Counted from the first letter of the stretch, positions 6,490-31,285 are shown. The stretch is 37,048 nt of DNA from Patescibacteria group bacterium (GCA_041660885.1 JBAZVM010000009.1:1-37048), one strand, 5' to 3'. A program made the numbers and translations. The notes: generated by a model from the letters alone, not told the origin.

Positions 6490-6514
6490 TAGTATTGAAA
6501 AAAATAATTTATTT

Positions 6515-6567
6515 GGGAACCCGGTCTGTCACGCAGTTGTAGCGAGCGTGACTTTCCGGGGGTTCCC
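6515..6567 (-). terminator. GC-rich compound hairpin immediately 3' of the GC-rich ORF
   Basis: GGGAACCCGG...GTCACGC / GCGTGAC...CCGGGGGTTCCC form nested inverted repeats. On the minus strand they are followed by AAATAAATTATTTTTTT. The hairpin begins 6 nt after the stop codon at 6573-6575. Confidence 0.5.
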
Positions 6568-6572
6568 TCCTG

Positions 6573-7148
6573 TCATCCGATGGGGCGTCCCACGTAGTAG
6601 TCCTGCGACCCCACCTGCCGTGCGCGGATGTTCGCACGACGGATGCGCCACATGATGAGGTACGCGATCATTTTTTTCTTGTTCGGAATGTCGAACGCGC
6701 AGCCGTGGCGCGGCCAGCGCGTCGTGACCTCCTTGATCACGTGGTCGATGAAGTGGACGAAGTAATCCAGCCCTCGGTACTTCTTGTAGATCATGAGCAC
6801 CGTGAGGTAAACCGTGTCGTTCGGGAAGAAGGTCGGGGAGACCCAGGGGGCCTTTCCCATGTAGCCCGGCTTGGCCACGACGGCGAAGCCGGCGGGCAAG
6901 CCGTGCACGTAGAAGACGAACTTGATGAGGTCCTGATCGCAGCACGCGGCCGCGAAGGTGTCCTCCTCGTAGTTCATCTGATCGTGCGGGCAGTGTCCCC
7001 GTGACTTCCCGAAAAACTCGCTGTACTCGCTCCACATCTCGGGGACGAGGTCCTGGGGGACGACCTCAAACCCTTCGATGGACAAACCTTCACTCGCCTT
7101 CGCATTGTTGAAGAGAATGTAAGCCAGGAAACGCGCGTACGTACGCAT
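6573..7148 (-). CDS. GC-rich foreign ORF, possible GNAT-fold acyltransferase
   Basis: 191-aa ORF preceded by GAGGAA 6 nt upstream of the ATG. A hand count gives 40/60 G+C at 6601-6660 against 14/60 at 7261-7320. The pattern FVFYVHGLPAGFAVVA ... VYLTVLMIYKKYRGLDYFVHFIDHVIKEV resembles GNAT beta4-alpha3. This functional call is weak. Confidence 0.7.
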   Translation of the reverse strand: MRTYARFLAYILFNNAKASEGLSIEGFEVVPQDLVPEMWSEYSEFFGKSRGHCPHDQMNYEEDTFAAACCDQDLIKFVFYVHGLPAGFAVVAKPGYMGKAPWVSPTFFPNDTVYLTVLMIYKKYRGLDYFVHFIDHVIKEVTTRWPRHGCAFDIPNKKKMIAYLIMWRIRRANIRARQVGSQDYYVGRPIG

Positions 7149-7190
7149 TTAGTTCCTCGTTTGTTGAGCAACTTGATCCACAATTGGCGC

Positions 7191-7241
7191 CTTGCCGAAT
7201 TGGGATCGTTACCTTATAATAGAAATACACTAAAAAGTCAA
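7191..7241. promoter_or_regulatory. divergent promoter region (GC-rich ORF leftward, histidine kinase rightward)
   Basis: The minus strand reads TTGACT (7241..7236), 17 nt, TATAAG (7218..7213). The plus strand reads TTGCCG (7191-7196), 18 nt, TATAAT (7215-7220). The quasi-palindrome CAATTGGCGCCTTGCCGAATTG lies just upstream. Confidence 0.35.
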
Positions 7242-9747: not shown

Positions 9748-12465
9748 ATGCCGAAACATGAGGTTAATTTTTATAATCTATCATTTAACGAAGTAATTAG
9801 CCGTTTTAAAACGGGCGATAACGGCCTAACTCTGGAAGAAGCTAAAAATAGGCTGAAAGAGCACGGCTTTAACAAATTGCCGGAAGAGAAAGGCGCCTCC
9901 AGCATAAAACTTTTTTTCGCGCAGTTTAAAAGCGTTTTAATTTATATTTTGTTGATTGCCGCGGTAATCAACTTTTTTTTGGTTTGCGAAGAAAGCAAAA
10001 GTTTGAATCTTTCCATATCCGACCAAGCGGATACCTATATAATTCTAATCACGGTTCTAATTAATATTATTGTCGGTTTCATACAAGAAAATAAAGCGCA
10101 AAAGTCTTTGCAGGCTTTGAAGAAAATAATTTCTTTAAGCGCCCGCATAATTCGCGGCGGAAAAGAATTCGTGATCAATGCGCAAGAATTGGTGCCCGGA
10201 GATGTAATGCTTATATCCGCCGGGGATAAAATTCCGGCCGATGTTCGGCTGACCGAAGTGGAAGATTTGGAAGCAAACGAATCTGCGCTTACCGGCGAAA
10301 GCGAACCGGTAAAGAAAACAACTGTAAAACTGGAAGGGGAATTGCCCTTGGGAGATAGGCTGAACATGGTTTTTACCGGAACCACCATAACCAAAGGCCA
10401 GGGAAGGGGTATTGTTATTACCACCGGAGAAAAAACCGAAATCGGCCGCATTGCCAAGCTTATCAAAGAAACAAAGGACGAAAGCACGCCGCTTCAGCAA
10501 AAGCTTAATAAATTTTCCAAGAGCATGGGAATAGTTGTTTTGGCCGTGGCCGCGGTTTTAATGATTATCGGTTTTCTGCAGGGAGATCCTTTCATTGAAA
10601 TATTCACGGTATCCGTGGCCGTGGCGGTTTCCGCTTTGCCCGAAGGGTTGGCCATTGGCGTAACCGTTATTTTAGCTTTGGGTATGCAGCGCATTTTGAA
10701 GCAAAAAGCTTTGGTGCGCAAATTGGTAGCCGCGGAAACTTTAGGGTCCACCACTTTCATTTGCACGGATAAAACCGGCACTCTAACCGAAGGTAAAATG
10801 CAGGTAACGGATTTAATCACTTGGGATCATGATTTTAACGTGAAAAAAACCGAAGATAAAAAATTGCGCAGCAAGGAAAACGAAGAAATGCTTTTTGCTT
10901 TGCACATCGGCTTGATGTGCAATGACGCGCGCATAGACAATATCGATGACGATATAGATGATTGGATAATCTCCGGCAATCTTACCGAACGAGCGCTGTT
11001 GCTGGCCGCCACCCAAGCCGGATTGCAATACAAAAAAGAACACTCATTGTATCACCGGCTGGATAGCATTCCCTTTGATTCGGAAATTAAATATATGGCG
11101 ACCCTGCATAAAATGGATGCCAAGCGCAATATAGTTTACTTTAAAGGCGCGCCGGAAAAAGTATTTAATAAATGCACGCATCTGCGCGTAGGCAACAAAG
11201 AAGTAAAATTCGATGAAGAAAAAAGAGAAAAGTTTTTAAATAAATTCACAACTTTAAGCAATAAAGGATTGCGCGTAATTGCCTTAGCTTATCGCCATAT
11301 CCCTGTAAAAAATAAACGTTTGGCAGATGTAAATTTAAACACGCTGGTTTTTGTGGGCTATGTGGGCATTAAAGACCCGCTAAGACCTACTTCTAAAGAA
11401 ACAGTGGAGGAATGCCATCAAGCGGGTATTAAAGTGGTAATGATCACCGGAGACCATAAATTAACAGCTTCGGCCATTGCCAAAGATTTGGGCTTGCCTT
11501 GCGCCGCAGAAAATATTTTAGAAGGGCAAGAGCTTGATAAAATGAGCGACGATATATTAAAGCAGCGTGTAGAAGAAGTATTTGTTTACGCGCGGGTAAG
11601 CCCGGAGCATAAACTGCGCATTGTGCAGGCTTTGCGCAAACGCGGAGAAGTGGTGGCTATGACCGGAGATGGCATTAATGATTCGCCGGCGCTTAAAGCC
11701 TCTGATATCGGTGTGGCCTTGGGTTCTGGCACGCAAGTAGCCAAAGAAACAGCGGATATGGTGATACTGGATGATAATTTCCGAAGCATTGTGGGCGCGG
11801 TGGAAGAAGGCCGAGGGATATTCGACAACATTAAAAAAACCGTGCTGTATTTAATATCCGATTGCTTTTCCGAAGTTGTTTTATTAACTGGGAGCATATT
11901 GATGGGTATGCCCCTACCTTTGGTAGCAGGCCAGATTTTATGGATAAATTTGGTAAATGATACTCTGCCTAACTTGGCATTAACTAAAGAGCCGAAAGAA
12001 CAGGAAATAATGTTTGAACCGCCCAGGGGCCGCAAAGCGGAAATATTAACCAAAGATATTAAAATACTTGTGGTTTTTGTCAGTTTGTTTTCCGGGTTAT
12101 GCGGATTGGGTTTATTTTATTTCTTTAATCAGTATTACGACAATGTCGTGTTAGCCAGATCAGTAACATTTGCCATGCTTGGATTGGATTCCCTTATTTG
12201 TGTTTTCAGCATGCGTTCTTTAAGAAAAAGCATTTTTCAAGGCAATTTGTTCAGCAACTTATACCTGATTGGGGCCGTAATTATCAGCTTTGCGTTCTTG
12301 GCTGCCGCATTTTATGTTCCTTTGTTGCAGCAAATATTAAAAACCGAGCCTCTACAATGGAGTCATTGGCTATTGGTGCTGGCCCTTTGTTTGGTGGAGA
12401 TGGGGTTGATAGAAGCATTGAAATTTATCTTTATGAGGGGTAGAATAAAGTTAATAAGCAAATAA
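9748..12465 (+). CDS. P2-type cation-transporting ATPase (Ca2+/Mg2+-ATPase-like)
   Basis: Motifs seen are TGES, DKTGTLT (the phospho-Asp site), PEGL in TM4, MITGDH, TGDGINDSPAL and NLVNDTLP in TM6. The N-terminal cation-ATPase domain reads LTLEEAKNRLKEHGFNKL. Confidence 0.93.
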   Translation: MPKHEVNFYNLSFNEVISRFKTGDNGLTLEEAKNRLKEHGFNKLPEEKGASSIKLFFAQFKSVLIYILLIAAVINFFLVCEESKSLNLSISDQADTYIILITVLINIIVGFIQENKAQKSLQALKKIISLSARIIRGGKEFVINAQELVPGDVMLISAGDKIPADVRLTEVEDLEANESALTGESEPVKKTTVKLEGELPLGDRLNMVFTGTTITKGQGRGIVITTGEKTEIGRIAKLIKETKDESTPLQQKLNKFSKSMGIVVLAVAAVLMIIGFLQGDPFIEIFTVSVAVAVSALPEGLAIGVTVILALGMQRILKQKALVRKLVAAETLGSTTFICTDKTGTLTEGKMQVTDLITWDHDFNVKKTEDKKLRSKENEEMLFALHIGLMCNDARIDNIDDDIDDWIISGNLTERALLLAATQAGLQYKKEHSLYHRLDSIPFDSEIKYMATLHKMDAKRNIVYFKGAPEKVFNKCTHLRVGNKEVKFDEEKREKFLNKFTTLSNKGLRVIALAYRHIPVKNKRLADVNLNTLVFVGYVGIKDPLRPTSKETVEECHQAGIKVVMITGDHKLTASAIAKDLGLPCAAENILEGQELDKMSDDILKQRVEEVFVYARVSPEHKLRIVQALRKRGEVVAMTGDGINDSPALKASDIGVALGSGTQVAKETADMVILDDNFRSIVGAVEEGRGIFDNIKKTVLYLISDCFSEVVLLTGSILMGMPLPLVAGQILWINLVNDTLPNLALTKEPKEQEIMFEPPRGRKAEILTKDIKILVVFVSLFSGLCGLGLFYFFNQYYDNVVLARSVTFAMLGLDSLICVFSMRSLRKSIFQGNLFSNLYLIGAVIISFAFLAAAFYVPLLQQILKTEPLQWSHWLLVLALCLVEMGLIEALKFIFMRGRIKLISK

Positions 12466-12470
12466 ACCAT

Positions 12471-13001
12471 ATGAAACAAGTATTAATGGTAATCGCCAAA
12501 CAAGGTTTTAAAGACATAGAATATTTTGAACCAAAGCAAATCTTGGAAGATAATGAAATAAGCGTGCACACCGCTTCGACCGAAATAGGCACTGCTACGG
12601 GCAGCGATGGAAAAACAACCAGTATTGATTTTACCGTGGCTGATTTTTTGGAAAAAGAAGAAAACATGGCTCAATACGAAGCGGTTATTTTTGTCGGCGG
12701 TGGCGGAATGGAACCGCTCACGGACGATGCCAATTTTCAAAAGCTGGCCATTAATTTTTTCACTGCTCATAAAATCGTAGCGGCCATTTGCGTGGCGCCT
12801 ATATTATTGGCCAAAGCCGGCTTGTTACGAGGAAGAGACGCCACAGTGTCTTCTAATCAAGAATACATAGATGCTATTGTTAACAATGGCGCGGAATATT
12901 TGAATCAAGATTTGGTTGTAGCTGATAATATCATTACCGCCAGCGGGCCAAAGGTGGCTTATAAGTTTGGCTTAACCATTATGGAAACCATAAATAAATA
13001 A
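12471..13001 (+). CDS. DJ-1/PfpI family protein
   Basis: 176 aa with GGGGME, the nucleophile-elbow motif AAICVAPILLAKAG, and ITASGP near the C-terminus. Confidence 0.85.
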   Translation: MKQVLMVIAKQGFKDIEYFEPKQILEDNEISVHTASTEIGTATGSDGKTTSIDFTVADFLEKEENMAQYEAVIFVGGGGMEPLTDDANFQKLAINFFTAHKIVAAICVAPILLAKAGLLRGRDATVSSNQEYIDAIVNNGAEYLNQDLVVADNIITASGPKVAYKFGLTIMETINK

Positions 13002-13002
13002 T

Positions 13003-13617
13003 ATGCATTTTAAAACAAAATTAGCCTTAGGATCAATTCTAGCCGTGGCTTTGGTAGCGGGGATATTAACTTTGCGCCAAAAATTTTATCCTTCTGCCAC
13101 TTCTATTTTAGATATTAACGCCACGAAAACCGCGGAAGAAGATTTCGATAAAAAAATGCTTACTATGTTAAAAAGAATGGATGTAGCTCTTGATACTAAT
13201 ACCAATGCTAACGGGAATGCAAACAGCAATGCCAATACTAATATTAACACCAGCCAAATCGTTGATAAAAAAGAAGTGCTGGCGGAAAAATTTTATTTGG
13301 TTTTATATCCTCAAGTACAGATAGACGCCGATTTAAATATAAACACGGAAAAGAAAATATCCACTGCTTCATTATCAACCAAGGACGAAAAAGATAAAGT
13401 GCTAGAATTCTATAAAGAGCAATTAACCGACCAAGCCAAAGAAATTGAAAGCGTAAACGAGCAATCAGACGACAAACTGGAAACATCTTTGATACTGTTT
13501 TCCGGCGAAGGCGGCGAAGGGGAGCTTAATGTAAAAATTTGGCGCTCCGGCGAGCAAACCAATATAGATTTATCCATCTCCGATAACTTTAAGGACCCGC
13601 GCTCTTCAGCTCTTTAA
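13003..13617 (+). CDS. membrane-anchored hypothetical protein with an Asn-rich linker
   Basis: It has an N-terminal signal-anchor (LALGSILAVALVAGILTL) and the linker TNTNANGNANSNANTNINT. It starts 1 nt after the DJ-1 stop. Its 3' end overlaps the mfd 3' end by 29 nt in convergent orientation. Confidence 0.65.
   Translation: MHFKTKLALGSILAVALVAGILTLRQKFYPSATSILDINATKTAEEDFDKKMLTMLKRMDVALDTNTNANGNANSNANTNINTSQIVDKKEVLAEKFYLVLYPQVQIDADLNINTEKKISTASLSTKDEKDKVLEFYKEQLTDQAKEIESVNEQSDDKLETSLILFSGEGGEGELNVKIWRSGEQTNIDLSISDNFKDPRSSAL
13195..13251 (+). repeat. Asn-rich low-complexity coding tract (TNTNANGNANSNANTNINT)
   Basis: Read directly from the translation as AAT/AAC-rich imperfect codon repeats. 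Confidence 0.7.
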
Positions 13618-15916
13618 TCGCGGTATTTAATAGTCTTAAATACAAATTCAAACCGATTTCTTCGGCTTGGCCTGATTGGGCTTTCCCTAAAATATTGCCC
13701 ACGCCTCTTAATTCCAAATCTTTCATGGCCAATTCCATGCCGCTGCCCAGGCCGCTGAATTCCGTTAAAGCTTTCAGTCTTTTTCTCGCCTCCATCGTTA
13801 ATTGTGTTTGTTCGTATAATAAATAGGCGTACGCCTCAACGTAGCTTCGGCCGATGCGTCCTCGTATTTGATGTAGTTGGGAAAGCCCGAAATTCGGCGC
13901 GTTATGCACTATTAAAGTGTTGGCGTTGGCGATATCCAGCCCATTTTCAATAATAGTAGAGCAGATTAAAATATCGGTTTTTCCTTCATCAAAATCGTGC
14001 ATTACCCCGGCTAATTGTTTCGGTTCCATCTGGCCGTGCGCCACGGCTATTCTGGCTTTGGGGAATAATTTTTGCAGTTTATGGAAAATAAAATTTATAG
14101 TCTCTACTTTATTATAGAGAAAATAAACCTGTCCTTTTCTATTTAATTCTTGCTCAACCGCTTGTTTAATAATTTGCTCCGACTCCTGCGCGATAATGGT
14201 TTTAATTTTTAAGCGGTGCGGGGGAGGAGTGCGTATAACGGAAATTTCTCGCAAACCGGAAAGCGCCAAGTTTAAAGTACGTGGAATGGGCGTGGCCGTG
14301 AGTGTTAATACATGCGGCGCGTGCTCGGATTTTATTTTTTTAAAAAATTCTTTATGCTTTACCCCGAATTTTTGTTCCTCATCCACGATTATTAAGCCTA
14401 ATTTGTTAAAAGCGATATCTTTGGAAAGCAAGCGGTGGGTGGCGATGATAATATCGGTATGACCGCTTTTTATTTTATTAACCGCTTCTTTTTGCTGCTT
14501 GCCGGATTTAAAGCGGGAAAGCAGCTCGATTGACACCCCGAATTTTTTTAAGCGGTCGCAAAAAGTATCGTAATGTTGCTGAACAAGAATAGTGGTAGGG
14601 CAGAGAATGGCTACCTGGTATCCGTTAAGCACGGCGCGGAAAGAAGCGCGCATCGCGATCTCGGTTTTGCCAAAACCAACATCCCCGCAGATCAGCCTAT
14701 CGGCCGGCTTTTCTTTGCCTAGATCGGCCAGCGTGTCTATCAGGGATTGTTCTTGATCCGGAGTAAGCGGATAGGGGAAAGAATCCCATAGCTCTTTTTC
14801 GCTTGATTGTTCTTTGAATATTGGAGCTTTTATCACTTCGCGCTGAGCGTAAATGTTAAGCAGGTCTTTGGCAATAACTTCGGTCTTCTTTTTTATTTTG
14901 TTGAGAATCTGTTCCCAGGAAGCATCGTCTAAACGATGCAGTTTCGGCTTTACCGAGCCGATATATGGTTCTAATCGGTTACCGCTTGTAAACGGCACAA
15001 AAAGTTTGTCGTTATGTGCGTATTGCAAGAAAAAATATTTTTCGGCTTTAATTTCTTTATACCCGGCGAATTGGGCAACGCCGTGATCAATATGCACCAC
15101 ATAATCTCCCGGTTGAAGATTATCCAAAAAATTTTGGTCTGCTTCTTTTTTTTCTTCAATCAGGGGCGCGCCAAAAATATTTTCGTCCGTTAAAAATATC
15201 GTGTTTTCTTTGGGCAAGATAAAGCTTTCCAATTCAATATCGCCCTTATCCTCCAGTATAGTTTTTCTTTGCGTGATTATCTTACTGATTTTATATGCTT
15301 GTTTGGTGAAAATTAAAATTTTTAAATATTTATTAAGATCATGATTTAATTCTTTAAAACGCATGTTATAAAATTTCGGGGAAACAAATTCCCCATGTAA
15401 ATCATCTTCCCGCATTAAGGCGCTGGAAGCGGGTATCTTTTGCGGATAAACATGAAGCTCTTTAAGATCTTTATTTTTTTTATTGCTTTCCAAAGAAAAA
15501 GAAAATATTTTTTGTATTTTATTTCCTTCAAATTGCACGCGCATGGGGTCGTTTAAAAAAATATCCAGCACATCTCCGCGCACGGAAAAAGTCTTTTCCT
15601 GGTTGGCCGTGGTGTTGCGCTCGTAAGCCAAAGCCACCAGCTTGGCCACAATATCGGACAAAGCCATTTCTTCACCCACAGCCAATTGCAAAGCAAGCGC
15701 CAGATATTCTTTATCGGTTATTTTATTTTCCGTATAGAATTTTTCCGAAACAATATTGTTAATGGGAAATAAAGGATTCCAAAACTGACAAAGGGATTTT
15801 AAAGATAAAACATCCCGTTCTTCCGCTGTTAAATAAAAAGCCAGCCTATTTTTGTAAAATAGGGGGGTGTTTGCTAGTTCATAGCTTATTTCAGTTAAAC
15901 TGCGCCATATAGACAC
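13589..15916 (-). CDS. mfd: transcription-repair coupling factor Mfd (short form, 775 aa)
   Basis: It has the CarD/RNAP-interacting motif GDYVVHIDHGVAQFAGY and SF2 motifs GDVGFGKTE, DEEQKFG and TATPIPRT. The TRG motif is QLHQIRGRIGRS. Confidence 0.9.
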   Translation of the reverse strand: MSIWRSLTEISYELANTPLFYKNRLAFYLTAEERDVLSLKSLCQFWNPLFPINNIVSEKFYTENKITDKEYLALALQLAVGEEMALSDIVAKLVALAYERNTTANQEKTFSVRGDVLDIFLNDPMRVQFEGNKIQKIFSFSLESNKKNKDLKELHVYPQKIPASSALMREDDLHGEFVSPKFYNMRFKELNHDLNKYLKILIFTKQAYKISKIITQRKTILEDKGDIELESFILPKENTIFLTDENIFGAPLIEEKKEADQNFLDNLQPGDYVVHIDHGVAQFAGYKEIKAEKYFFLQYAHNDKLFVPFTSGNRLEPYIGSVKPKLHRLDDASWEQILNKIKKKTEVIAKDLLNIYAQREVIKAPIFKEQSSEKELWDSFPYPLTPDQEQSLIDTLADLGKEKPADRLICGDVGFGKTEIAMRASFRAVLNGYQVAILCPTTILVQQHYDTFCDRLKKFGVSIELLSRFKSGKQQKEAVNKIKSGHTDIIIATHRLLSKDIAFNKLGLIIVDEEQKFGVKHKEFFKKIKSEHAPHVLTLTATPIPRTLNLALSGLREISVIRTPPPHRLKIKTIIAQESEQIIKQAVEQELNRKGQVYFLYNKVETINFIFHKLQKLFPKARIAVAHGQMEPKQLAGVMHDFDEGKTDILICSTIIENGLDIANANTLIVHNAPNFGLSQLHQIRGRIGRSYVEAYAYLLYEQTQLTMEARKRLKALTEFSGLGSGMELAMKDLELRGVGNILGKAQSGQAEEIGLNLYLRLLNTAIKELKSAGP

Positions 15917-15985
15917 GAGGGTTATTGTAATGAAATAAAGGGAAAATGTCTATATGTCAATAAAAAATAATCATGCTTTATATAG

Positions 15986-16014
15986 TTGACATTAAACATA
16001 TATATCTATATAAT
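15986..16014 (+). promoter_or_regulatory. consensus sigma70 promoter driving the island ORF
   Basis: TTGACA (15986-15991), exactly 17 nt, then TATAAT (16009-16014). Both hexamers match consensus perfectly. Confidence 0.55.
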
Positions 16015-16060
16015 CACGAATTCTGTAAATTTTGAATAGCTCTTTTTAGATTAGAATAGA

Positions 16061-16105
16061 GCCGTAGCTTTAAGCGTGTGAAATTCGCACTTTTAAAGCT
16101 GCGGC
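16061..16105 (+). promoter_or_regulatory. long 5'-leader hairpin
   Basis: GCCGTAGCTTTAA (16061-16073) pairs with TTAAAGCTGCGGC (16093-16105) over 13 bp including one G-U. The hairpin sits between the predicted TSS (~16021) and the start codon. Confidence 0.4.
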
Positions 16106-16138
16106 AACTACGCTGTGGCTACAATAAAGGCTATAGCG

Positions 16139-16615
16139 ATGACTATTGAGAAAAACATTATTCGTCGTCATGTGCTCATCATCCGCTCTCGAACGTCCCT
16201 GGAAATGCTGGACGCAACAGGGCGGAATCAGCACTTCCAGCCACAGGTAGTACTTAATATGCCCGTCGCTCGTAATGGCGAGATGGATGTAATTTTTTTC
16301 CACATCGGGCGTCGGCTCGCCGATGTTGAGCTGGCCAAGGAGTACGAGGATCGATACATTAAACCTCTCGATCCGTATACGTTACTCCAGATCAATATCG
16401 AGGATCCACAATTTGCCGATGATCACCCAAATGGAACAATTTGGAAAGATGAACGGGGTCGATGGTGTCATGCCGCGTTCGATGTGGCATGGAGCAATTG
16501 GGGAGAAATACCCCATCGACGAGTCCATGTTCTCGGGCCCGACATCTCCTGCGGCCACTGGTGGTCTGATCGCTGGGTATTCGCCGGTGTAGAAAAGAAG
16601 TTTTTTCCGGTCTAG
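16139..16615 (+). CDS. hypothetical protein, GC-enriched, Trp/His/Cys-containing C-terminal half
   Basis: The track ORF 16115..16615 starts at GTG. ATG 16139 (MTIEKNIIRRH...) is preferred. Hand G+C counts are 27/60 at 16141-16200 and 37/60 at 16501-16560. I recognise no domain. Notable segments are HPNGTIWKDERGRWCHAAFDVAWSNWGE and CGHWWSDRWVFAGV. Confidence 0.65.
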   Translation: MTIEKNIIRRHVLIIRSRTSLEMLDATGRNQHFQPQVVLNMPVARNGEMDVIFFHIGRRLADVELAKEYEDRYIKPLDPYTLLQINIEDPQFADDHPNGTIWKDERGRWCHAAFDVAWSNWGEIPHRRVHVLGPDISCGHWWSDRWVFAGVEKKFFPV

Positions 16616-16644
16616 GGACACAGAAGGGGGGTACCTAGGCTATG

Positions 16645-16693
16645 ACTCGTCTCGAATTTATCCCAAACAAACAGTGGATAATTCGAGACGGGT
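16645..16693. repeat. 14-bp inverted repeat (1 mismatch) with a 21-nt loop
   Basis: ACTCGTCTCGAATT (16645-16658) pairs with AATTCGAGACGGGT (16680-16693). The central 11 bp are perfect. Confidence 0.5.
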
Positions 16694-16725
16694 TAAGAGT
16701 AATTTAATAATGTGGCTTAAGAATC

Positions 16726-16754
16726 TTGACCGCAAATAAATAATCATTTAGTAT
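16726..16754 (+). promoter_or_regulatory. possible promoter for the DUF3800 gene
   Basis: TTGACC (16726-16731), 17 nt, then TAGTAT (16749-16754). Confidence 0.3.
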
Positions 16755-16764
16755 AAAAATATCG

Positions 16765-16790
16765 AAAAGGCGAGACACGCCTTTTTTTGT
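16765..16790 (+). terminator. intrinsic terminator or leader attenuator hairpin
   Basis: AAAAGGCG-AGACA-CGCCTTTTTTT forms a short GC stem extended by A-U pairs, followed by a run of 7 T. It ends 12 nt before ATG 16802. Confidence 0.5.
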
Positions 16791-16801
16791 TTTTATTTTT
16801 T

Positions 16802-17431
16802 ATGCTAATTTTTGTTGATGAATCCGGAGATACCGGCCGAAAACTAAATAAGGGTTCTAGCAGATACTTTATTATTGCTATTGTAATTTTTTCAGAATCG
16901 GAAGAAGCTTTAAATTGCGACAAGCGTATTAATCAGCTAAGACGAGAAATCGGAAAGCCGGATAATTTTGAATTTCATTTTACTCATAATTCGGAGACAG
17001 TCAGACAAAAATTTTTGCAAGCAATTCAGCCTTATCACTTTAATTATTTCAGCGTGGTCATTGATAAACATCCGAATAAATTATGGGGACCGGGTTTTAA
17101 AGACAAAGAGTCCTTTTATAAATATGCTTGCAATATGGTTTTTACCAATGCTTTATTTTATTTAGACGATGCTACCGCGGTTTTAGATAAGTCTGGTTCT
17201 CCTGATTTTCGAAATAGGTTGGCGAAATATTTACGTAAGCGTATAAATGAGCAAGGCACGGGAAAGATAAAGAAGCTGAAACAGCAGAGATCATCCGCGA
17301 ATAATTTATTACAGCTGGCGGATTATGTATCAGGAATTATCAATAGAAAAGTGCAAAATAAAAGAGGCTGGATGCAATATTACAAATATATATCGGATAA
17401 AGAGAATTGGGTGCAAATTTGGCCCAAATAA
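16802..17431 (+). CDS. DUF3800 family protein
   Basis: MLIFVDESGDTG at the N-terminus (the D-E-S-G motif) and NLLQLADYVSG near the C-terminus are the two signature blocks of DUF3800. The track start at 16787 lies inside the preceding T-run, so ATG 16802 is preferred. Confidence 0.8.
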   Translation: MLIFVDESGDTGRKLNKGSSRYFIIAIVIFSESEEALNCDKRINQLRREIGKPDNFEFHFTHNSETVRQKFLQAIQPYHFNYFSVVIDKHPNKLWGPGFKDKESFYKYACNMVFTNALFYLDDATAVLDKSGSPDFRNRLAKYLRKRINEQGTGKIKKLKQQRSSANNLLQLADYVSGIINRKVQNKRGWMQYYKYISDKENWVQIWPK

Positions 17432-17501
17432 AAAAATACCGCTTCTTACCCCCGAAGGGGACGCCCCGATGAACGGGACTATTTGAAGCGGTACCAATTC
17501 C
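17430..17501 (-). ncRNA. candidate ~70-nt three-way-junction small RNA (unknown class)
   Basis: The minus strand reads ...GGAAUUGG-UACCGCUUC-AAAUAGU-CCCG(UUCAU)CGGG-GCGU-CCCC(UUCG)GGGG-UAA-GAAGCGGUA-UUUUUUU. It has a 9-bp closing stem, two hairpins (one with a cUUCGg tetraloop) and a U7 tail. A promoter sits immediately upstream. Confidence 0.45.
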
Positions 17502-17507
17502 TTTCCA

Positions 17508-17535
17508 AATATAGCATAACTCTAAATACAGTCAA
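17508..17535 (-). promoter_or_regulatory. sigma70-like promoter for the minus-strand small RNA
   Basis: The minus strand reads TTGACT (17535..17530), 16 nt, then TATATT (17513..17508). Confidence 0.4.
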
Positions 17536-17564
17536 TTTTGTTTTCCACATATAGATCTTAACCC

Positions 17565-17592
17565 TTGACAAATAAAAAAACCCTGTTAAAAT
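17565..17592 (+). promoter_or_regulatory. sigma70 promoter with extended -10 for the plus-strand small RNA
   Basis: TTGACA (17565-17570), 16 nt, then TGtTAAAAT (TG at 17584-17585, hexamer at 17587-17592). Confidence 0.5.
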
Positions 17593-17598
17593 GGCCTA

Positions 17599-17745
17599 AT
17601 TGTGAAGAAAAGTAGCGTTTAGGGTGTTGCTGGTAAGCGCCAACAAGGGGACTACCCCTCCTGGTCCTCTTCAGTAGCGTTAAGGAGTCTGGGGATAACC
17701 TAGATCTCCGCTTATCAGTGACACTTTAGCCGCTACTTTTTTGTT
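17599..17745 (+). ncRNA. candidate ~145-nt structured RNA (unknown class)
   Basis: A perfect 10-bp closing helix pairs AAAAGUAGCG (17608-17617) with CGCUACUUUU (17731-17740), followed by UUGUUU. Internal hairpins are GGGG-ACUA-CCCC (17647-17658) and a 10-bp hairpin with one bulge and a GAUAA loop (17684-17709). AGTAGCGTT occurs twice (17611-17619 and 17673-17681), which allows alternative pairing with the 3' strand. Confidence 0.5.
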
Positions 17746-18284
17746 TAATTGAAACTATTCATTGTTTTGGCCAATCCTTGGGTAATGGCCATTTCCACGG
17801 CCTCATTGGCCGCGATAATGATATCTTTTAGATTTTTTTGCTCATCGACGGAAAAATTAGAAAGCACAAAATCAGCCGTGTCGGTTTTAGGGGTGTGGAT
17901 ATTTTTCACACCCAAACGGATATGCACAAAATCTTTAGTTCCCAGACATTCAATAATAGATTGCACGCCGTTATGGCCGGCGGAAGAGCCGGTGCCTTTT
18001 ACGCGCATAGAGCCGAAATTTAAATCTTTGTCATCATGAATTATGAAAATATTGGCCGGCTTAATCTTATAAAATTTCGCGATCTTAGCCACAGCCCTGC
18101 CCGACTCGTTCATGAAAGTTAAAGGTTTGGCAATAATAATATTATTTTCTTTGGAAATAGCCGATTCAAATTTTTTATTAATCTTAAAATCGCTGGCTAT
18201 TTGGTCTACCACCATAAAGCCGATATTGTGCCTGGTTTTTTCGTATTTTTTTCCGGGGTTACCCAGTCCCACAATAAGCTTCAT
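17745..18284 (-). CDS. pth: peptidyl-tRNA hydrolase
   Basis: MKLIVGLGNPGKKYEKTRHNIGFMVVD, GHNG and the rest of the 179-aa sequence are a typical Pth. Confidence 0.95.
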   Translation of the reverse strand: MKLIVGLGNPGKKYEKTRHNIGFMVVDQIASDFKINKKFESAISKENNIIIAKPLTFMNESGRAVAKIAKFYKIKPANIFIIHDDKDLNFGSMRVKGTGSSAGHNGVQSIIECLGTKDFVHIRLGVKNIHTPKTDTADFVLSNFSVDEQKNLKDIIIAANEAVEMAITQGLAKTMNSFN

Positions 18285-18285
18285 A

Positions 18286-19650
18286 CTATTTGCTTATAAA
18301 TATTTTAATAGGAATGCCTAAAAATTCATAGCGATCGCGTAAGGCTTTTTCAATTAATTTAGCGATTGCTTCGGGAAAATTTTTCGGAGTGGGGGTTTGC
18401 AAATGAAACACCGGCGGATTGGTTCTTTCTTGAGTTAACCTCTTTATAACTAAAGGTTTTTTTTCTTGGCCGAAAGTGACGGTTTGCCTTTGCCGCGGTT
18501 TATATTTTCTAAGAAGTTCTTCTATTATTTTATCCAGATCTTCTTGATCCGCTTGCAAATTGGCTTGCTTTTCTATTTCCAAAGTCAGGTCCAGCATTTT
18601 TTTTACGCGCAGTTTTTCTAAAGCAGAAACGAAAATCATAGGCACGTGGCGCGCAAAGGGGAGCTTGGCATCGAAGTATTTTACAAAATCATTAATAGTA
18701 TTCTCATCCTTTTCTTCTATCAAGTCCCACTTATTGACCACTAGAATTAAATTTTTACGTTCCTGAATGCAAAGATCCACCAAAGCTTGGTCTTGGCTGG
18801 TTATTCTTTCTTGAGATTCCAAAACCAAGGCCACTACGTTAGCCCGGCGGATGGTTTCTATGGTGGCGCGCACTCCTTCTTTTTCTATTTTACCCATCAT
18901 TTTATTCGGCCAATCACCCACGCGGCTTTTTCTCCGCAAACCCGCGGTGTCTACTAAAATAAATTGGCGGTCATTATATACAAATTCAAGATCATTGATA
19001 TCGCGCGTGGTATGCGGTAGGGGAGAAACCAGCACTTTTTCCTGGCCCATAATGGCATTGATCAAAGAAGATTTTCCCACATTGGGCCGGCCTACGATAG
19101 CCAAATGAATGGCATTTGCGTTCTTTTCTTTAATAGTGGCGGATGCGGGTAATTTATCGGTTATTAAATCCAATAATTCACCGGTTCTCGAACCATTGAT
19201 AGAGGAAAATTTCACCGTGTCAGTAAAATTTAATCTGGTAAAATCCGGATCAATGTCTTTCTCGTTTTTTTTATTATCAATTTTATTGATACCCAGTATT
19301 ACCGGTTTTTTTAATTTTTTAAGCCAAGCAGCCAATTCTTTGTCTTGCGGCATGATGGGGCTTCTGCCATCTACTATAAATAGAATCATATCCGCTTCTT
19401 CTATGGCAAGCTTTACCTGTTTTTGGATGCCGGAAGACAGTGCGTCTTTAGGGGCAGTGTCTAAGCCTCCTGTGTCCACCAACATAAAACTTTTCCCGTT
19501 CCAAGCGATTTCCGCGTAATTGCGGTCCCGCGTGGTGTTTTCCATAGGAGAAACAATGGCTTTTCTGGTTTCCGAAAGCCGGTTAAATAAAGTAGACTTG
19601 CCGGCATTAGTGCGGCCGACAATAGCAACAACAGGGCTGGTTTTTTTCAT
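18286..19650 (-). CDS. der: ribosome-associated GTPase Der (EngA)
   Basis: Two tandem G domains carry P-loops GRTNAGKST and GRPNVGKSS, each followed by DTGG/DTAG and NKxD motifs. A KH-like C-terminus follows. Confidence 0.95.
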   Translation of the reverse strand: MKKTSPVVAIVGRTNAGKSTLFNRLSETRKAIVSPMENTTRDRNYAEIAWNGKSFMLVDTGGLDTAPKDALSSGIQKQVKLAIEEADMILFIVDGRSPIMPQDKELAAWLKKLKKPVILGINKIDNKKNEKDIDPDFTRLNFTDTVKFSSINGSRTGELLDLITDKLPASATIKEKNANAIHLAIVGRPNVGKSSLINAIMGQEKVLVSPLPHTTRDINDLEFVYNDRQFILVDTAGLRRKSRVGDWPNKMMGKIEKEGVRATIETIRRANVVALVLESQERITSQDQALVDLCIQERKNLILVVNKWDLIEEKDENTINDFVKYFDAKLPFARHVPMIFVSALEKLRVKKMLDLTLEIEKQANLQADQEDLDKIIEELLRKYKPRQRQTVTFGQEKKPLVIKRLTQERTNPPVFHLQTPTPKNFPEAIAKLIEKALRDRYEFLGIPIKIFISK

Positions 19651-21179
19651 ATAGCCTTATCTTGCCCTAAAATGACGATAAAATCAACGCCTTCAATGTT
19701 TAAATTGGCGTTTGGGTATATAGTAGTGAAATTATCCGTGGCTGTTTCCGCGGATAGTTCTGTTTTTAATGATTCCAAAGTTTTAGGATTTTTTTCGGTT
19801 AAATCGTATATTAGCGTGGTTTCCGCGGGCATGGGAGCGTTTCCGATTTCCGAAACGATTAAATTAAGAGCATCAAGTTCTTTGGAGGTCGTATCCGCCA
19901 AGCCGACTACGCTAGTGCCGTTTAAAATAATTATGGCGGCTTTTTCCTCTTCGGCCGTGGCTTTTTCTTCCACTATCTCTTCTTTTTTTATATTGAAAAC
20001 GTTTTTAGCTATTTTTTTAATTTCCGAGAAATTATAATCTCCGGCTTTAGGCACTAAAACATATGCGCCGGTATCCGGAGCGATCATACCGACGAGCGGG
20101 CCTTCCACGCTATCATCTATGGTGGTGTTCGTGATCTCGCTATTATCAATTTCTTTAATCATCATGGCCAGCTTTGCCATTTCACCGAGTTCCAGATTAG
20201 TCCTTAAATGATCCCCAAGATCATTCATTAAATTGGTAATTTTTACGGGATTAGCCAAGGTGGAAGTGGAGAGCGCTCTTTTTTTAAACGCTTCCATGAT
20301 TTTTTGCTGGCGTTTGCTGCGCGCGAAGTCCGAACCTTCATTATAATCCGCTTTGGGATCGTTATAAGCCACTTTTCGAATGCGGGCAAAACGTAAAGCG
20401 GTTTCCCCGTTCATTTTTTGCATGCCTTTTTGGAATTTAAACACGCAATATGGTCCGTCTCCGTCATCCATATAATATGGCCCGCCATCGGTATCTTGGC
20501 AGGTGCCGCCGCAATCAGTGATGTGGTAATAGCCCGTAAATTTATTAGGAGCGTCCACTTCAATGCCTCCAACGTCATCGATTAATTTTATAAAACCGCC
20601 GAAATCCATGAGCACGTAATAATGCATTTTCAAGCCGGTTACTTCTTCCACTTTAGCCACGGATAAATCGATTCCTCCCAGTTCATAAGCGTAATTTATT
20701 TTTTTTCCTTCCCAATATTTTGATTTCGGGTCGCTATATATTTTTACCACTAAATCGCGTGGCAGGGAAAGAAGCGCCACTTGCTTGGTGGATGGTTTGA
20801 TGCTAGCGACCATTATTGTATCGGTCAGCGTGCCGCCGGCGTGATCTCCGCCGCCAATGCCCAAAAGAAGGACATTAATTCTATCTTTTTCTTCGCCTTT
20901 CAGCGGTTCTTTATTCTCCCGCACCATTAGCTCTAATTGTTTGTATAAGGATGTGGATTTATCCTGATCTATGATTTTATCCACATTTTTGGAAAAAAGC
21001 TGGTAGCAAGCGCCTATTCCCAAGACTATAATTAGAATAACGGAAAGAAGTATCCATTTTTTAAATGGTTTTTTAGTTTTCTTTTCTTCACTATTAATCC
21101 CTGTTTCTTCAGTCTTTATTTCTATCTCCCCGGTGTTTTCTTCTTTAAGCACTTCCAGCTCGATTTTCGTTTTTTTCAT
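19647..21179 (-). CDS. LytR-CpsA-Psr (LCP) family protein with a C-terminal LytR_C-like domain
   Basis: It has an N-terminal TM anchor. The LCP core reads RINVLLLGIGGGDHAGGTLTDTIMVASI...ALLSLPRDL. The C-terminal segment is AAIIILNGTSVVGLA. It overlaps the der start by 4 nt. Confidence 0.85.
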   Translation of the reverse strand: MKKTKIELEVLKEENTGEIEIKTEETGINSEEKKTKKPFKKWILLSVILIIVLGIGACYQLFSKNVDKIIDQDKSTSLYKQLELMVRENKEPLKGEEKDRINVLLLGIGGGDHAGGTLTDTIMVASIKPSTKQVALLSLPRDLVVKIYSDPKSKYWEGKKINYAYELGGIDLSVAKVEEVTGLKMHYYVLMDFGGFIKLIDDVGGIEVDAPNKFTGYYHITDCGGTCQDTDGGPYYMDDGDGPYCVFKFQKGMQKMNGETALRFARIRKVAYNDPKADYNEGSDFARSKRQQKIMEAFKKRALSTSTLANPVKITNLMNDLGDHLRTNLELGEMAKLAMMIKEIDNSEITNTTIDDSVEGPLVGMIAPDTGAYVLVPKAGDYNFSEIKKIAKNVFNIKKEEIVEEKATAEEEKAAIIILNGTSVVGLADTTSKELDALNLIVSEIGNAPMPAETTLIYDLTEKNPKTLESLKTELSAETATDNFTTIYPNANLNIEGVDFIVILGQDKAI

Positions 21180-23367: not shown

Positions 23368-23805
23368 ATGAGTCTTTACAATCAAATCAATGACGATTTA
23401 AAAAAGGCGATGAAAGCGCAAGACGCTTTTTTATTGGGCACTTTGCGCATGGTTTATTCTTCCATGAAGTATAAAGCCATTGATAAAAAAGCCGACCTGA
23501 CTGACGACGACTGCCAGAAAATATTGGCTTCCGAAGCTAAAAAGAGAAAAGACTCTATCGCCGCTTTTGAAAAAGGCAACCGGCCGGAATTGGCGGAAAA
23601 AGAAAAAAAAGAATTGGAAATAATTAAAAAATATTTGCCAAAACAGCTTTCCGAAGAAGAATTAAGAGCCATTATCGTTAAAGTGGTGGCTGCCAACGCG
23701 GGTTTGGGCTTTGGCCCGATGATGGGCAAAGTAATGGCTCAGGCCAAAGGCAAAGCTGATGGCGCTTTGGTACAAAAAATATTAAAAGAAGAAACGGATA
23801 AATGA
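23368..23805 (+). CDS. yqeY: GatB/YqeY domain protein
   Basis: Family-typical segments are INDDLKKAMKA.D...L.TLRM, EAKKRKDSIAAFEKGNRPELAEKEKKELEIIKKYLPKQLSEEEL and MGKVMAQAKGKADG. Confidence 0.85.
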   Translation: MSLYNQINDDLKKAMKAQDAFLLGTLRMVYSSMKYKAIDKKADLTDDDCQKILASEAKKRKDSIAAFEKGNRPELAEKEKKELEIIKKYLPKQLSEEELRAIIVKVVAANAGLGFGPMMGKVMAQAKGKADGALVQKILKEETDK

Positions 23806-26800
23806 AAAACAAAAAAAATCTCGTCAAAAAAATGCTTTTCGGCTTAGGCTTGATCAGTAGTCTTTTTTTCGTTGTTAACAGCGTTTTTGCTCAAGTAAAA
23901 ACTGATTACGGTATTAACTTGGGTGATGCTTCCCCTGAAGAATTAGCCGTGAGCATTATTAATTGGGGATTAGGCATTCTGGCGCTTATCGCCGTCATCA
24001 TTATACTGTATGGCGGTTTTGTTTGGATGCTTTCCGGCGGTAATGAAGAAAAAGTGGAAAAAGCTAAAAAAATATTAAGAAACGGCATTATCGGCTTAGT
24101 AATTATTCTCGCGGCATGGGGCATTGCTACTTATATAATCAACAGGCTTTTAGACGCCACCAATGCCAATAACGGCACAAGCGGTGGCCCCAGCTACACT
24201 GATAATATACATGGTAAGGGCAATCCTTTTTACGTGGATCATTCTAATCCCGCGGACGAGGAGATTAATGTTACTTTATGTCATTTAATTGCCGTTACTT
24301 TTTCTTTGCCTGTTGATAAAACAACTATTAATGATGCGAATTTTAAAGTTACAGTGGCAAACGGCTCTAATCCGGATGGGGATTCTTGCGTTTCATCCTC
24401 CGATTGCGCGTCTGGCTTGTGCGAAATGGGCGATAGTATAGGTACATGTATAGGCGACCAAGTAAAAGGCACGTTCGCGTTTACCGAAGATCCGCCATAC
24501 GCGGCTGTTTGGTACCCAACTGCAGATTATATTGCTTCCACTACTTATCACGTGGAACTTTCTACGGAAATAGTAGGCCTTGATGAAATCACCACAGATA
24601 CTTATAAACTGGAAATGGGAGATACCAAGCGCGTGTTTGAATTCACCACGGGCACGGAATCCGACACCACGCCGCCGAAAATAGATGTGGTTTCCGTTAA
24701 ACCTTTCCCAGAGGATAACGCCACGGAAGTTTGCCGCAACACTCCCATACAAGTCAGCTTTTCCGAAAGTTTGGATCCCGCTTCCGTGAAAGATGAAAAT
24801 ATCTGGCTTTATAAATATACCGAAGGCGTTACTCCGAACGACCCGGGGAATGAATTATCCAGCGTGCGCTTTACCAGCATTGGCGGGCAAGCGGACGATA
24901 CTTTGATTACCAGCCCGCAAAGCGTGTTGGATTCGTACGCTGATTACGGTATAAGTTTATATAGCGGCGTTTACGACGCGGCCATAACTTCGGTGCGCGA
25001 AAATTATTTGGGTGCTGTTCGCGATACTTGCGGCAATCCTATTAGCGGAGATTACGACGACGATATGGAAGGCAGCCCCGCGGACGATTTCATGGAAGCG
25101 ACTAGCGCCGTGACCGCGCAAAATTCCGCTTATTCTTATCAGTGGACTTTCAAAACCGGCGAACAAACCGATTGTTCTCCGCAAATCGATTCGCTTACAT
25201 ACACTCAGCCCGATTACTATAGCGAAGACCTTTCTCCCTTTAATAACGAAAAACCCGATATAGATGGAGACGGCAAACCAGATGTAATGGCTGGCAGCGA
25301 AGATACCGACCAAGTTACTATTACGGGAAAATATCTCTATCCATTTTACGATGTAGGATTTGATTATAATATCTCTGGCGCTAATTTAAATTGTTTTGAC
25401 AGCGGTCACAATGTAAATTCGTCGTGCTTTATAACCAACAGCGGCAGCAGCGCCATTACTTTGCGCACTCCGGTCGCCGTGCGTAGCGGCGGAACTGTTT
25501 CCGTGGAAAATGAGTTTGGCACAGATAGTTCCGCTGATCAATTTTATGTTTCTTCGCCTTATATCAGCAGCTTGTCGCCGCAACAGGGGGCAGTAGGCCA
25601 ATTTGTAACCATAAAAGGCGCGCATTTCATTAATGATAAAAAAGGCAAAGTGTATTTTGACGGCCAGGAAGTGGAAACCCCTTGCGCCGATGGCTGGGAT
25701 GATGATCAAATCGTAGTGAAGATTCCGGATAGTTTTGGCGATTCGTTTTCCATAGGAGCTTTACTATCTGTTCAGGTGGTTACTGTGGGCCCAGATGGTG
25801 TTTGGAATAGTGGAGCGTATGGTACCGACGATAAATACAGCAATAAAAGAGGATTTACTTTAAAAGACGGCAGTCCCGGCCCGGGATTATGCTCCGTGGA
25901 TCCTTCTTGCTCCAATGACGGCACCGAAGACGTGGCCTTGAACGGTATTAATTTTGGCACGACCAGCGAATCCGTCTATTTTATTAACTCGTCCGATGTC
26001 GGGCAAACGGCTTCAATAAATTCATGGACGGATACGGACATTCTTACCGATCAATCTCCGGTTACCGCGCAAAATAATTACGATGCGTTTGTATCCATAA
26101 AAGATGCGGACGGAGAATCTATTTTTAGCAACGGTATGTCTTATGACATTCCTTGCGGTGAAGCACCTAGCGTGTTTACTTACGGCAGCTGCGATTTAAC
26201 CAGCGATGTTTATTATTTGCCGAATCCGCGGCCGAGTACGGAAGAAGCCTGCATTAACGGTGTAGTGTATTTTGCTTTTACCGCTGGCATGGATGACGCT
26301 TCCGTTAAAAATAATGTAAAAGTTTATAATTACGGCACCGGAGATTGGAACGCGAATTTGGCCACTGCTTCGGAAGTAGCTGGATCTATAGACAGCGAAG
26401 GAAAATTAAGTAAAATTTATTTAGGAGGCAGCGCTGATGAAGATTCTGATTATGAATTATTTTCTTTCACGCCACCGTCATCGCAACAGTTTGCTAGCGA
26501 CACTTGGTATAAGGTTACCATTCCCGTATCGGTTGTAAGTGATACCGGCATTGCCATAACCGAACCGTACGAATGGCATTTTAAAGTACGCAGTGGAACG
26601 GAAAATTGCAGCGTGGACGAAGTGGATGTACGCCCGTCTTTTACCAGGGCCACCACTTATGTTTCTACGGCCGCTTGTCCGGAAGAAAATTATACTTACG
26701 ATAGTAAGAATTATAACTACAAAGCCCAACCGTATAACGATGGTTGTTTCGCCTTAAGAAACGATTTTAGCTGGCATTGGGCTATAGATAATAATACCAA

Positions 26801-31277: not shown

Positions 31278-31285
31278 ATTATGCT

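Follow-up and report, generated by a model that had tools for sequence, protein, structure and literature searches.

We analyzed a 37,048-nucleotide (nt) stretch of DNA from a Patescibacteria group bacterium (GCA_041660885.1, JBAZVM010000009.1), here referred to as the window, in which a gap between the genes pth and mfd holds a gene for a DUF3800 protein with a small RNA (sRNA) at its 3′ end, a gene of a variable-protein family of diversity-generating retroelements (DGRs), and a second sRNA that adjoins pth. An initial annotation had described the LCP gene, der and pth as contiguous on the minus strand, with 4-nt and 1-nt junctions and a 1.8-kb gap to mfd, and this arrangement was confirmed, the gap measuring 1,828 nt (Table 1). 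The same annotation had placed all coding content of the gap on the plus strand, which holds for both protein genes but not for a conserved RNA gene of approximately 70 nt that lies with its promoter on the minus strand (17432 to 17535). The perfect promoter reported ahead of the first protein gene was recovered at every position, and the assignment of the second gene to DUF3800 was borne out by Pfam (E value of 4e-16). Three stretches of the gap fold far below shuffled controls (z = −7.2 for 16020 to 16140, −5.9 for 16616 to 16795, and −7.4 for 17598 to 17745), and an Rfam search of the gap returned nothing meaningful, either at the gathering score or at E values up to 10. The single tRNA gene of the window is distant from the gap.

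To place the gap in context, the closest relatives were picked by Pth similarity, and their contigs were compared for synteny. The order LCP-der-pth-mfd-DJ-1-P-type ATPase is kept in five relatives with Pth identities of 82, 64, 61, 60, and 53%, most of which also have a gene for a hypothetical protein of about 200 amino acids (aa) after mfd; a sixth relative genome has no mfd at the syntenic position. The pth-mfd spacers of the relatives measure 294 nt (L081), 243 nt (L082), 203 nt (L083 and L084), 207 nt (L089), and 208 nt (L091). The window is homologous to the closest relative, L081, from mfd through the putative mfd promoter to approximately 15952 to 15958 and again from approximately 17541 to 17546; when 15953 to 17540 is subtracted, 240 nt of the gap remain, inside the 203- to 294-nt range of the relatives. 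The initial annotation had listed four elements for the gap, namely an orphan gene, a DUF3800 gene and two structured RNAs, and of these the empty-site relatives carry the long hairpin RNA alone; the shared presence of all four, which that annotation had said would refute an insertion, was not seen. Judged from these sequence comparisons, approximately 1.6 kb of the gap is a lineage-specific insertion, an ordinary islet without visible mobility genes, and the earlier proposal of an insertion into a conserved pth-mfd junction stands.

The DUF3800 protein of the insert matches the Pfam model with 60.5 bits (cutoff of 21) over model positions 1 to 149. Residues D6 and E7 (FVDESGD) are conserved in at least 90% of the homologues, and D129, Q171, and D174 (Q171-L-A-D174) are invariant across 32 of them; an N-terminal DE and a C-terminal QxxD motif have been described for DUF3800 (PMC7736814), and the window protein has both. 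An AlphaFold2 (AF2) model with a predicted local distance difference test (pLDDT) value of 92.3 had as its top Foldseek matches RNase HII (1eke; E value of 1.6e-4, template-modeling [TM] score of 0.49) and RNase H3 bound to an RNA/DNA hybrid (4py5; TM of 0.52). On the basis of this model, the protein is predicted to be an RNase HII/HIII-like nuclease, with the conserved residues as its candidate active site. The PADLOC model PDC-M04A matches the protein at 6e-9; PDC-M04 is without mention in the literature. Close homologues are 50 to 74% identical, and a genome scan yielded 80 loci, which by their record titles belong to many classes of Patescibacteria and to Elusimicrobia, Nitrospira, Thermodesulfobacteriota, Chloroflexota, Omnitrophota, Planctomycetota, Verrucomicrobiota, Acidobacteriota, Myxococcota, and Proteobacteria. 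Across these loci we observed no conservation upstream of the start codon, and genomic contexts vary even between the closest homologues, which argues that the unit consists of the gene plus the RNA.

The approximately 70 nt directly past the DUF3800 stop codon are conserved in all loci. Read on the opposite strand, they encode an RNA with a 5′ GGAAUUG tail, a three-way junction, and a closing stem, behind which a U-tract adjoins the stop codon of DUF3800. The template of this U-tract comprises the final lysine codon of the DUF3800 gene, its stop codon, and the A-run that comes next; GNRA/UUCG-type tetraloops cap one of the hairpins. In an alignment of 77 loci, 16 of the 20 base pairs show compensatory changes (390 double-change cells), and 97.2% of the cells are paired, compared with 71% after shuffling and 40 to 52% with slid partners. 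The covariation score was 0.76 versus 0.25, and none of 500 shuffles attained the observed value. G-U cells (n = 216) far outnumber A-C cells (n = 8), and a sigma-70-type promoter matching at 9/12 positions or more was present in 66 of the 77 loci, and the −10 box ended 6 to 7 nt before GGAAUUG in 71 of the 77. The excess of G-U and the positioned promoter are two independent lines of evidence that fix the strand of the sRNA. Pairwise identity amounts to 72% at unpaired and 57% at paired RNA positions, compared with 35% at third codon positions of the adjacent gene, and conservation of the unpaired junction bases exceeds that of codon positions 1 and 2 in the same gene. The sRNA has no variable unpaired segment: its 5′ tail is conserved, and every variable position is paired. 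We also observed that the template of the terminator U-tract shares positions with the invariant C-terminal WPK-stop of the DUF3800 protein (17425 to 17436); mutual constraint between the two gene ends is possible.

A covariance model (R1), built without the window copy and with the Rfam-positive loci included, detected exactly one RNA copy in 78 of the 80 DUF3800 loci, always on the opposite strand and directly past the stop codon; in the two loci without it, the contig stops at the gene. The two closest DUF3800 homologues contributed four additional loci, in quite different contexts and absent from the model, and each of these likewise has one copy in this position, at 72 to 79 bits; the empty-site relatives gave no match. 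At the level of sequence, the association of gene and RNA was thereby shown to be obligatory and the unit compact (approximately 0.8 kb). Rfam itself calls the element DUF3800-IX (RF02968; Weinberg et al. 2017, PMC5737381) in 4 of the 14 loci scanned (L033, L043, L059, and L064), opposite the gene strand, and these loci align in one family with the window copy. Like the window RNA, DUF3800-IX consists of a three-way junction with a closing stem and a U-run, and it has the same position and strand relative to the DUF3800 gene; the RF02968 consensus in L043 shares the architecture of model R1. The junctions differ, with AAAUAGU and UAAGA in the subtype of the window and GAACUGU and AUAGG in DUF3800-IX. 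RF02968 misses the window copy, which lies below the gathering score of 36.8 bits and gave nothing at E values up to 10 with the whole window, 1.9 kb, or 141 nt as the query, and at gathering score it also misses a subgroup comprising L001 to L008, L013, L019, L055, and L067. By alignment and covariation, the window sRNA is a divergent DUF3800-IX subtype undetected by Rfam. The literature gives no function for the DUF3800-IX motif.

Table 1. Features of the pth-mfd gap and its flanks (positions counted from the first nucleotide of the window)
Feature	Position	Strand	Evidence or remark
mfd (transcription-repair coupling factor)	13589-15916	-	Host gene, left flank; Pfam UvrB_inter, CarD_TRCF_RID, DEAD, Helicase_C; syntenic in relatives
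Putative mfd promoter, TAGACA-17-TACAAT	15924-15952	-	Host sequence; promoter scan 10/12
Inserted DNA, ~1.59 kb	15953-17540		Empty sites in relatives; boundaries accurate to ~10 nt
Promoter of DGR-family gene, TTGACA-17-TATAAT	15986-16014	+	12/12 match
22-bp leader hairpin of DGR-family gene	16061-16105	+	Fold z = −7.2; inverted repeat
Solo gene of DGR variable-protein family, short form, 158 aa from ATG	16139-16615	+	866 homologous clusters
Strong hairpin 27 nt past stop of DGR-family gene	16642-16697	+	Fold z = −5.9; 3′ untranslated region/terminator type
Intrinsic-terminator-like hairpin and T-run, ending 3 nt before DUF3800 start	16764-16799	+	Terminator scan
DUF3800 gene, 209 aa from ATG 16802	16802-17431	+	Pfam PF12686
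~70-nt structured sRNA, divergent DUF3800-IX type	17432-17501	-	Covariance model 72.5 bits, E = 1e-16
Promoter of ~70-nt sRNA, TTGACT-16-TG-TATATT	17508-17535	-	−10 box ends 6 nt before GGAAUUG
DnaA-box-like TTTTCCACA between the two divergent sRNA promoters	17541-17549	+	Probably host sequence
Resident sRNA promoter, TTGACA-16-TG-TAAAAT	17565-17592	+	11/12, extended −10; conserved in relatives
Resident ancestral ~145-nt sRNA	17599-17745	+	Fold z = −7.4; U-tract overlaps pth stop codon
pth (peptidyl-tRNA hydrolase)	17745-18284	-	Host gene, right flank; Pfam 216 bits
der	18286-19650	-	1 nt from pth
LCP gene	19647-21179	-	4-nt overlap with der

The first protein gene of the insert had been regarded as a GC-enriched orphan. 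Its GC content is indeed raised (50.5% versus 41.2% for the host), but the gene is no orphan: although a word-indexed search gave only 2 homologues of the 158-aa protein, an exhaustive search returned 866 cluster representatives at an E value of 1e-3 or below. No model of Pfam, NCBIfam, PHROGs, or PADLOC matches it. A metagenome scan for the protein provided 80 loci, whose neighboring genes were clustered, and the architecture was counted in the 45 loci whose downstream sequence extends for 1.5 kb or more. A reverse transcriptase (Pfam RVT_1, 7e-24; YADD motif) follows the gene in 31 of the 45, a bAvd-like gene is found in 11 loci of the family, and 32 of the 45 carry a template repeat, in which the final ~92 nt of the gene recur ~320 to 470 nt past the stop codon (709 nt in one case). 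Mismatches between variable region and template fall on template adenines in 352 of 373 cases (94%), counted over 25 distinct pairs. Together, the adenine-specific mismatches, the template repeat and the reverse transcriptase constitute the signature of a DGR, and the closest known counterparts of the family are the variable proteins of cellular DGRs of the Candidate Phyla Radiation (CPR) (PMC8144416).

In contrast to these DGRs, the window copy has neither a template repeat (no second copy of 16450 to 16640 and no match to the family template repeat in the 37 kb) nor a DGR-type reverse transcriptase or Avd gene (tblastn of the 37 kb with the family proteins gave nothing significant), and it lacks the N-terminal domain of about 60 aa; the large open reading frames (ORFs) of the window are housekeeping genes. 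Its protein is 40 to 50% identical to DGR variable proteins, and approximately 12 of the 45 homologous loci, about a quarter, are solo as well. By these homologues, the window gene belongs to a DGR variable-protein family and is a solo copy. DGRs are abundant in Patescibacteria and able to act on remote targets (Roux et al. 2021, PMC8144416). The window copy could be such a target, served by a DGR in another part of the genome, but the indels in its variable-region segment make it more likely that diversification of this copy has ceased. An AF2 model of the protein (pLDDT of 92) had no Foldseek match in PDB or BFVD at an E value of 1e-3 or below or a TM score above 0.25, C-type lectins included; a profile search of PDB sequences found no relative, and IMG/VR holds no member of the family. 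The loci of the scan (L096 to L175, e.g., L161, 3748 to 6161, and L119, 2945 to 5510) represent a DGR cassette that is widespread, chiefly in metagenomes of groundwater, sediment, and peat. Its variable protein of ~200 aa likewise lacks a Pfam family, and PDB and BFVD hold no structural match; the protein may provide a scaffold other than the C-type lectin for the variable region.

The flanks of this gene appear to be its own. The listed ORF begins at a GTG codon at 16115, and the 5′ leader hairpin had no nhmmer match in the 80 DGR-family loci. The stretch from 16616 to 16800 had been proposed as one of two structured RNAs bounded by a promoter and a terminator. It has only weak promoter matches (9/12), the spacer sequence 16616 to 16802 had no nhmmer match in the 80 DUF3800 or the 80 DGR-family loci, and the DGR-family loci show a terminator hairpin, its sequence unconserved, at a distance from the stop codon that corresponds to the hairpin at 16642 to 16697 and the terminator at 16764 to 16786 in the window. 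We therefore read this stretch as the 3′ end of the gene, most likely a 3′ untranslated hairpin and terminator and not a separate RNA gene. The second RNA of that proposal, at 17599 to 17745, proved to be a real structured RNA, albeit an ancestral one.

This resident sRNA has a long closing stem, two tip hairpins, and the invariant loop UACCCCUCCUG, which is anti-Shine-Dalgarno-like (CCCCUCC). It adjoins pth in six other genomes (seven Patescibacteria genomes in total), each time on the strand opposite pth and behind the same promoter (L081, 8072 to 8250; L082, 5176 to 5350; L083, 10558 to 10735, all on the minus strand; also L089, L090, and L091), and it is present in the genome without mfd at the locus too. 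Compensatory changes occur in 15 of its 44 pairs, with six sequences supporting the structure; no Rfam family matches. Since it was found in the spacer of every empty-site relative, comparative evidence identifies it as an ancestral host gene outside the insertion. RsaE/RoxS-type sRNAs of Gram-positive bacteria are regulatory sRNAs with C-rich loops. The resident sRNA resembles them as a stand-alone RNA that has a promoter and a terminator to itself and carries an exposed, invariant, C-rich anti-Shine-Dalgarno-like loop, but it has no sequence or Rfam relation to them and differs in the long closing stem and the two tip hairpins. The spacer of L081 contains, in addition, an extra segment of its own of approximately 67 nt with two short GC-rich hairpins (8250 to 8330, minus-strand view), and small elements may land in the pth-mfd spacer repeatedly.

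Between the promoters of the two sRNAs lies a DnaA-box-like motif, whose TCCACA box is also found in the empty-site relatives, upstream of the resident sRNA promoter. The 9-mer TTATCCACA, with at most 1 mismatch, occurs within 50 nt outside the cassette sRNA promoter in 17 of 75 DUF3800 loci, compared with 1.2% of control windows; these loci, in which it sits just outside the −35 box, are nearly all labeled Patescibacteria (L001, L010, L032, L033, L035, L036, L057, and others). In the window, the motif was observed 19 times, with 8.8 occurrences expected. Its role could be that of promoter element, regulator site, or target for insertion.

The insert is thus not the single island of an orphan gene, DUF3800, and two RNAs that the initial annotation had envisaged; one of those RNAs is owned by the host, and the RNA that belongs to DUF3800 had been overlooked. 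The comparisons showed that the cargo comprises two accessory cassettes unrelated to each other, next to which lies an ancestral sRNA gene that predates them in the spacer. A conserved two-protein system of the DGR-family ORF and DUF3800 was considered and rejected, as the two never co-occur in the loci of either family: in the loci scanned, the 5 kb around each DUF3800 gene held no match to a profile hidden Markov model of the DGR-family protein. The ORF leader, the ORF, and the long hairpin had no nhmmer match in the 80 DUF3800 loci; together with the negative searches of both sets of loci with the spacer, and of the DGR-family loci with the leader, this indicates that none of these stretches is a conserved component of either cassette. 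The earlier expectation of defense or other accessory cargo holds as far as accessory cargo is concerned; a defense role is plausible for DUF3800, given the PADLOC match and the relatives of the protein discussed below, and does not fit the DGR-family gene. Every component is of a known kind, i.e., a DUF3800 protein, a variant of a DUF3800-IX-type RNA, and a homologue of DGR variable proteins without its retroelement.

What might the DUF3800-RNA pair do? In type VII retrons, DUF3800 takes the effector-like part, and it is also found alongside Cas12a2/a3 and Cas13 systems. The window protein shares the Pfam domain, the DE and QxxD motifs, and, by its model, the RNase H2-like fold with the proteins of type VII retrons, the TPR-DUF3800 proteins found with Cas12a2/a3, Csx32 found with Cas13, and PDC-M04A, and in each of these defense-linked systems the protein is tied to a structured nucleic acid partner, as it is here. 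The window protein differs as a stand-alone single domain of 209 aa without a reverse transcriptase, Cas, or TPR partner, with the sRNA as its sole conserved neighbor. From these links and the PADLOC match, our best guess is an RNA-controlled nuclease module that would follow a toxin-antitoxin or abortive-infection logic. The sRNA would be the dedicated partner of the nuclease, which most likely recognizes the conserved junction nucleotides; the RNA would then restrain or direct the nuclease, and the pair would be self-contained as a module of the addiction or abortive-infection type, with a logic like that of RNA-antitoxin systems and of type VII retrons. A plus-strand terminator of its own is missing from the DUF3800 gene, so its mRNA probably reads antisense through the sRNA gene, and antisense control may add to that exerted through the protein.

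RNA-antitoxin systems such as ToxIN and bsrG/SR4 likewise combine a small RNA from a strong promoter with a nuclease or toxin gene in a compact mobile unit. Type III antitoxins are tandem repeats located upstream of, and cotranscribed with, the toxin gene, and type I toxins are small hydrophobic peptides. The window RNA departs from type III in being single copy, downstream, convergent, and expressed from its own promoter, and the window protein departs from type I toxins as a predicted soluble RNase H-like protein of 209 aa rather than a hydrophobic peptide; the antisense overlap of the mRNA is suggested by the missing terminator. On balance, we regard as probable, though by no means assured, the whole reading in which a foreign insertion brought two cassettes and the sRNA serves the nuclease as a dedicated partner in an addiction or abortive-infection-type module. 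More tentative, and possible rather than likely, is the broader proposal that the pair represents an unrecognized class of such RNA-protein modules, in which a single-copy sRNA neutralizes, or is restrained by, an RNase HII/HIII-like nuclease and the ~0.8-kb unit has spread horizontally over more than 10 phyla.

Several other explanations of the pair have to be weighed against a dedicated partnership of RNA and nuclease. The sRNA might be only a cis-encoded antisense RNA to the 3′ end of the DUF3800 mRNA, acting in the style of a type I system or in expression control without binding the protein. The genes are convergent and, lacking a DUF3800 terminator, the mRNA should hold the full complement of the sRNA; moreover, the sRNA promoter is strong, and the protein gene has no conserved promoter. 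An antisense pair, however, is complementary whatever its sequence, yet here the helices are kept by compensatory changes, the unpaired junction bases outrank the adjacent codon positions in conservation, and stable tetraloops cap one hairpin, features that suggest a specifically recognized folded RNA. As this pattern is unlike that of a pure antisense RNA, the folded RNA is probably recognized, most simply by its constant neighbor, and we consider the antisense explanation unlikely. Slightly less probable still are reversed roles, in which an abundant sRNA is harmful or regulatory and the DUF3800 nuclease processes or removes it, in the manner of type V or VIII systems. The predicted RNase H-type fold would suit such a role, and a strain-specific DUF3800 gene of Legionella was essential in transposon sequencing (Tn-seq) alongside known antitoxins, although that protein may be of another DUF3800 subfamily. 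In type I and III systems, the antitoxin is usually abundant and labile and the toxin scarce. The consensus promoter of the RNA and the weak promoter of the protein gene fit this arrangement, and the part assigned to DUF3800 in retrons and CRISPR-linked loci is that of the effector. The pair could also be an RNA-guided nuclease or an OMEGA/IS110-like self-mobilizing element that inserted itself here, since an RNase H-like protein with an obligatory structured RNA forms a minimal unit over many phyla and contexts, the DnaA-box-like motif is ~19-fold enriched just outside the cassette edge in CPR loci, and an imperfect inverted repeat of 30 nt surrounds the insert. Against this stand the lack of a guide-like variable unpaired segment, which speaks against a guide RNA function, the lack of conserved cassette ends or target-site duplications, an inverted-repeat left arm that is partly host sequence, and the presence of an unrelated second cassette in the insert, and we hold this explanation to be very improbable.

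The insertion itself was questioned in two ways. The switch of strand and GC content at the gap had raised the suspicion of a chimeric assembly of unrelated contigs, for which no support was found. A 2.1-kb contig (k141_856168 of ENA ERZ27249449) is 100% identical to window positions 16392 to 18511, as is a Logan contig of 31.9 kb (SRR18595301_69435; 8.3 kb compared) to positions 10589 to 18916, and together they cover both junctions of the insert, even though the three assemblies may share one read set; homology to the relatives, moreover, reaches right to the breakpoints. A chimera is accordingly rated as a negligible prospect. Alternatively, the elements could be ancestral and deleted in the relatives. 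Presence and absence alone cannot give the direction of change, and the host-like tetranucleotide composition of the DUF3800 gene would agree with a loss. The 1.6 kb is absent from all five relatives, which keep a compact spacer with the resident sRNA, both cassettes are found in unrelated contexts and phyla, and a loss would need at least several precise independent deletions; this alternative therefore has very little to recommend it.

A number of observations weigh against our interpretation of a foreign module with an RNA-controlled nuclease. The composition of the insert is mildly atypical for the DGR-family gene (z = 1.9 for GC content against host windows; tetranucleotide distance above the 95th percentile of the host) and typical for DUF3800, which the tetranucleotide profile could not distinguish from the host, and composition alone is no proof of an insertion. 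As that annotation had stated, there is no sign of an integrase, transposase, or flanking direct repeats: no recombinase, integrase, or transposase ORF was found in the window, and a repeat search detected no clean direct repeat or target-site duplication flanking the insert. The two cassettes may have arrived separately. The terminator 3 nt upstream of the DUF3800 start and the weak promoter before the gene make its expression in the window uncertain. Among the loci examined, the DUF3800 subfamily was not associated with recognizable defense islands, and it is nearly absent from viral contigs, with just two full-length relatives in IMG/VR. Finally, the essentiality of the Legionella gene is the behavior of an antitoxin, not of a toxin; the direction of control is therefore uncertain, and the two partners might play the opposite roles.

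A transposon, insertion sequence (IS), or integrative element was considered as the vehicle of the insert and rejected, there being no recombinase, no target duplication, and only a weak inverted repeat. The two 30-nt arms of this repeat (15938 to 15967 and 17537 to 17566) bracket the insert with 73% complementarity and a perfect 9-nt core; its significance is uncertain. No match was obtained when cultured phages and plasmids were searched at the DNA and protein levels, and a phage or plasmid origin of the insert is unsupported by these searches.

Two further features of the window were observed outside the gap. A patch of approximately 60% GC at 6500 to 7200, within a window of 41% GC, contains an ORF for 191 aa on the minus strand (6573 to 7148) that has no Pfam match and is unrelated to the DGR family; L081 has no such gene beside its histidine-kinase gene, and the patch may be a second small insertion. 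Behind an ORF for 2,491 aa (23802 to 31277) come proteins with bacterial TSP3 repeats (31241 to 33105). The homologue of the 2,491-aa ORF in L083 matches T4SS_pilin and Big_5, which makes a giant protein of the cell surface or associated with pili, of a kind typical of Patescibacteria, the likely product.

For annotation, the lesson of the locus is that an apparent island can be foreign only in part. Its analysis yielded, as by-products, a large family of DGR variable proteins without a Pfam entry or recognizable fold and a conserved Patescibacteria sRNA beside pth. The DUF3800-IX model of Rfam misses a whole subgroup of the RNA. DUF3800 proteins recur beside retrons and Cas12a2/a3 and Cas13 systems, and Rfam lists eleven unrelated RNA motifs beside DUF3800 genes, none of them with a known function. 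The locus described here reduces this problem to a minimal, uniform unit, a predicted RNase H-like protein of 209 aa and an RNA of ~70 nt with defined promoter, start, structure, and terminator, which makes ordinary experimental tests straightforward. If the addiction or abortive-infection reading is true, it would provide a function for DUF3800-associated RNA motifs, which have had none since their description in 2017.

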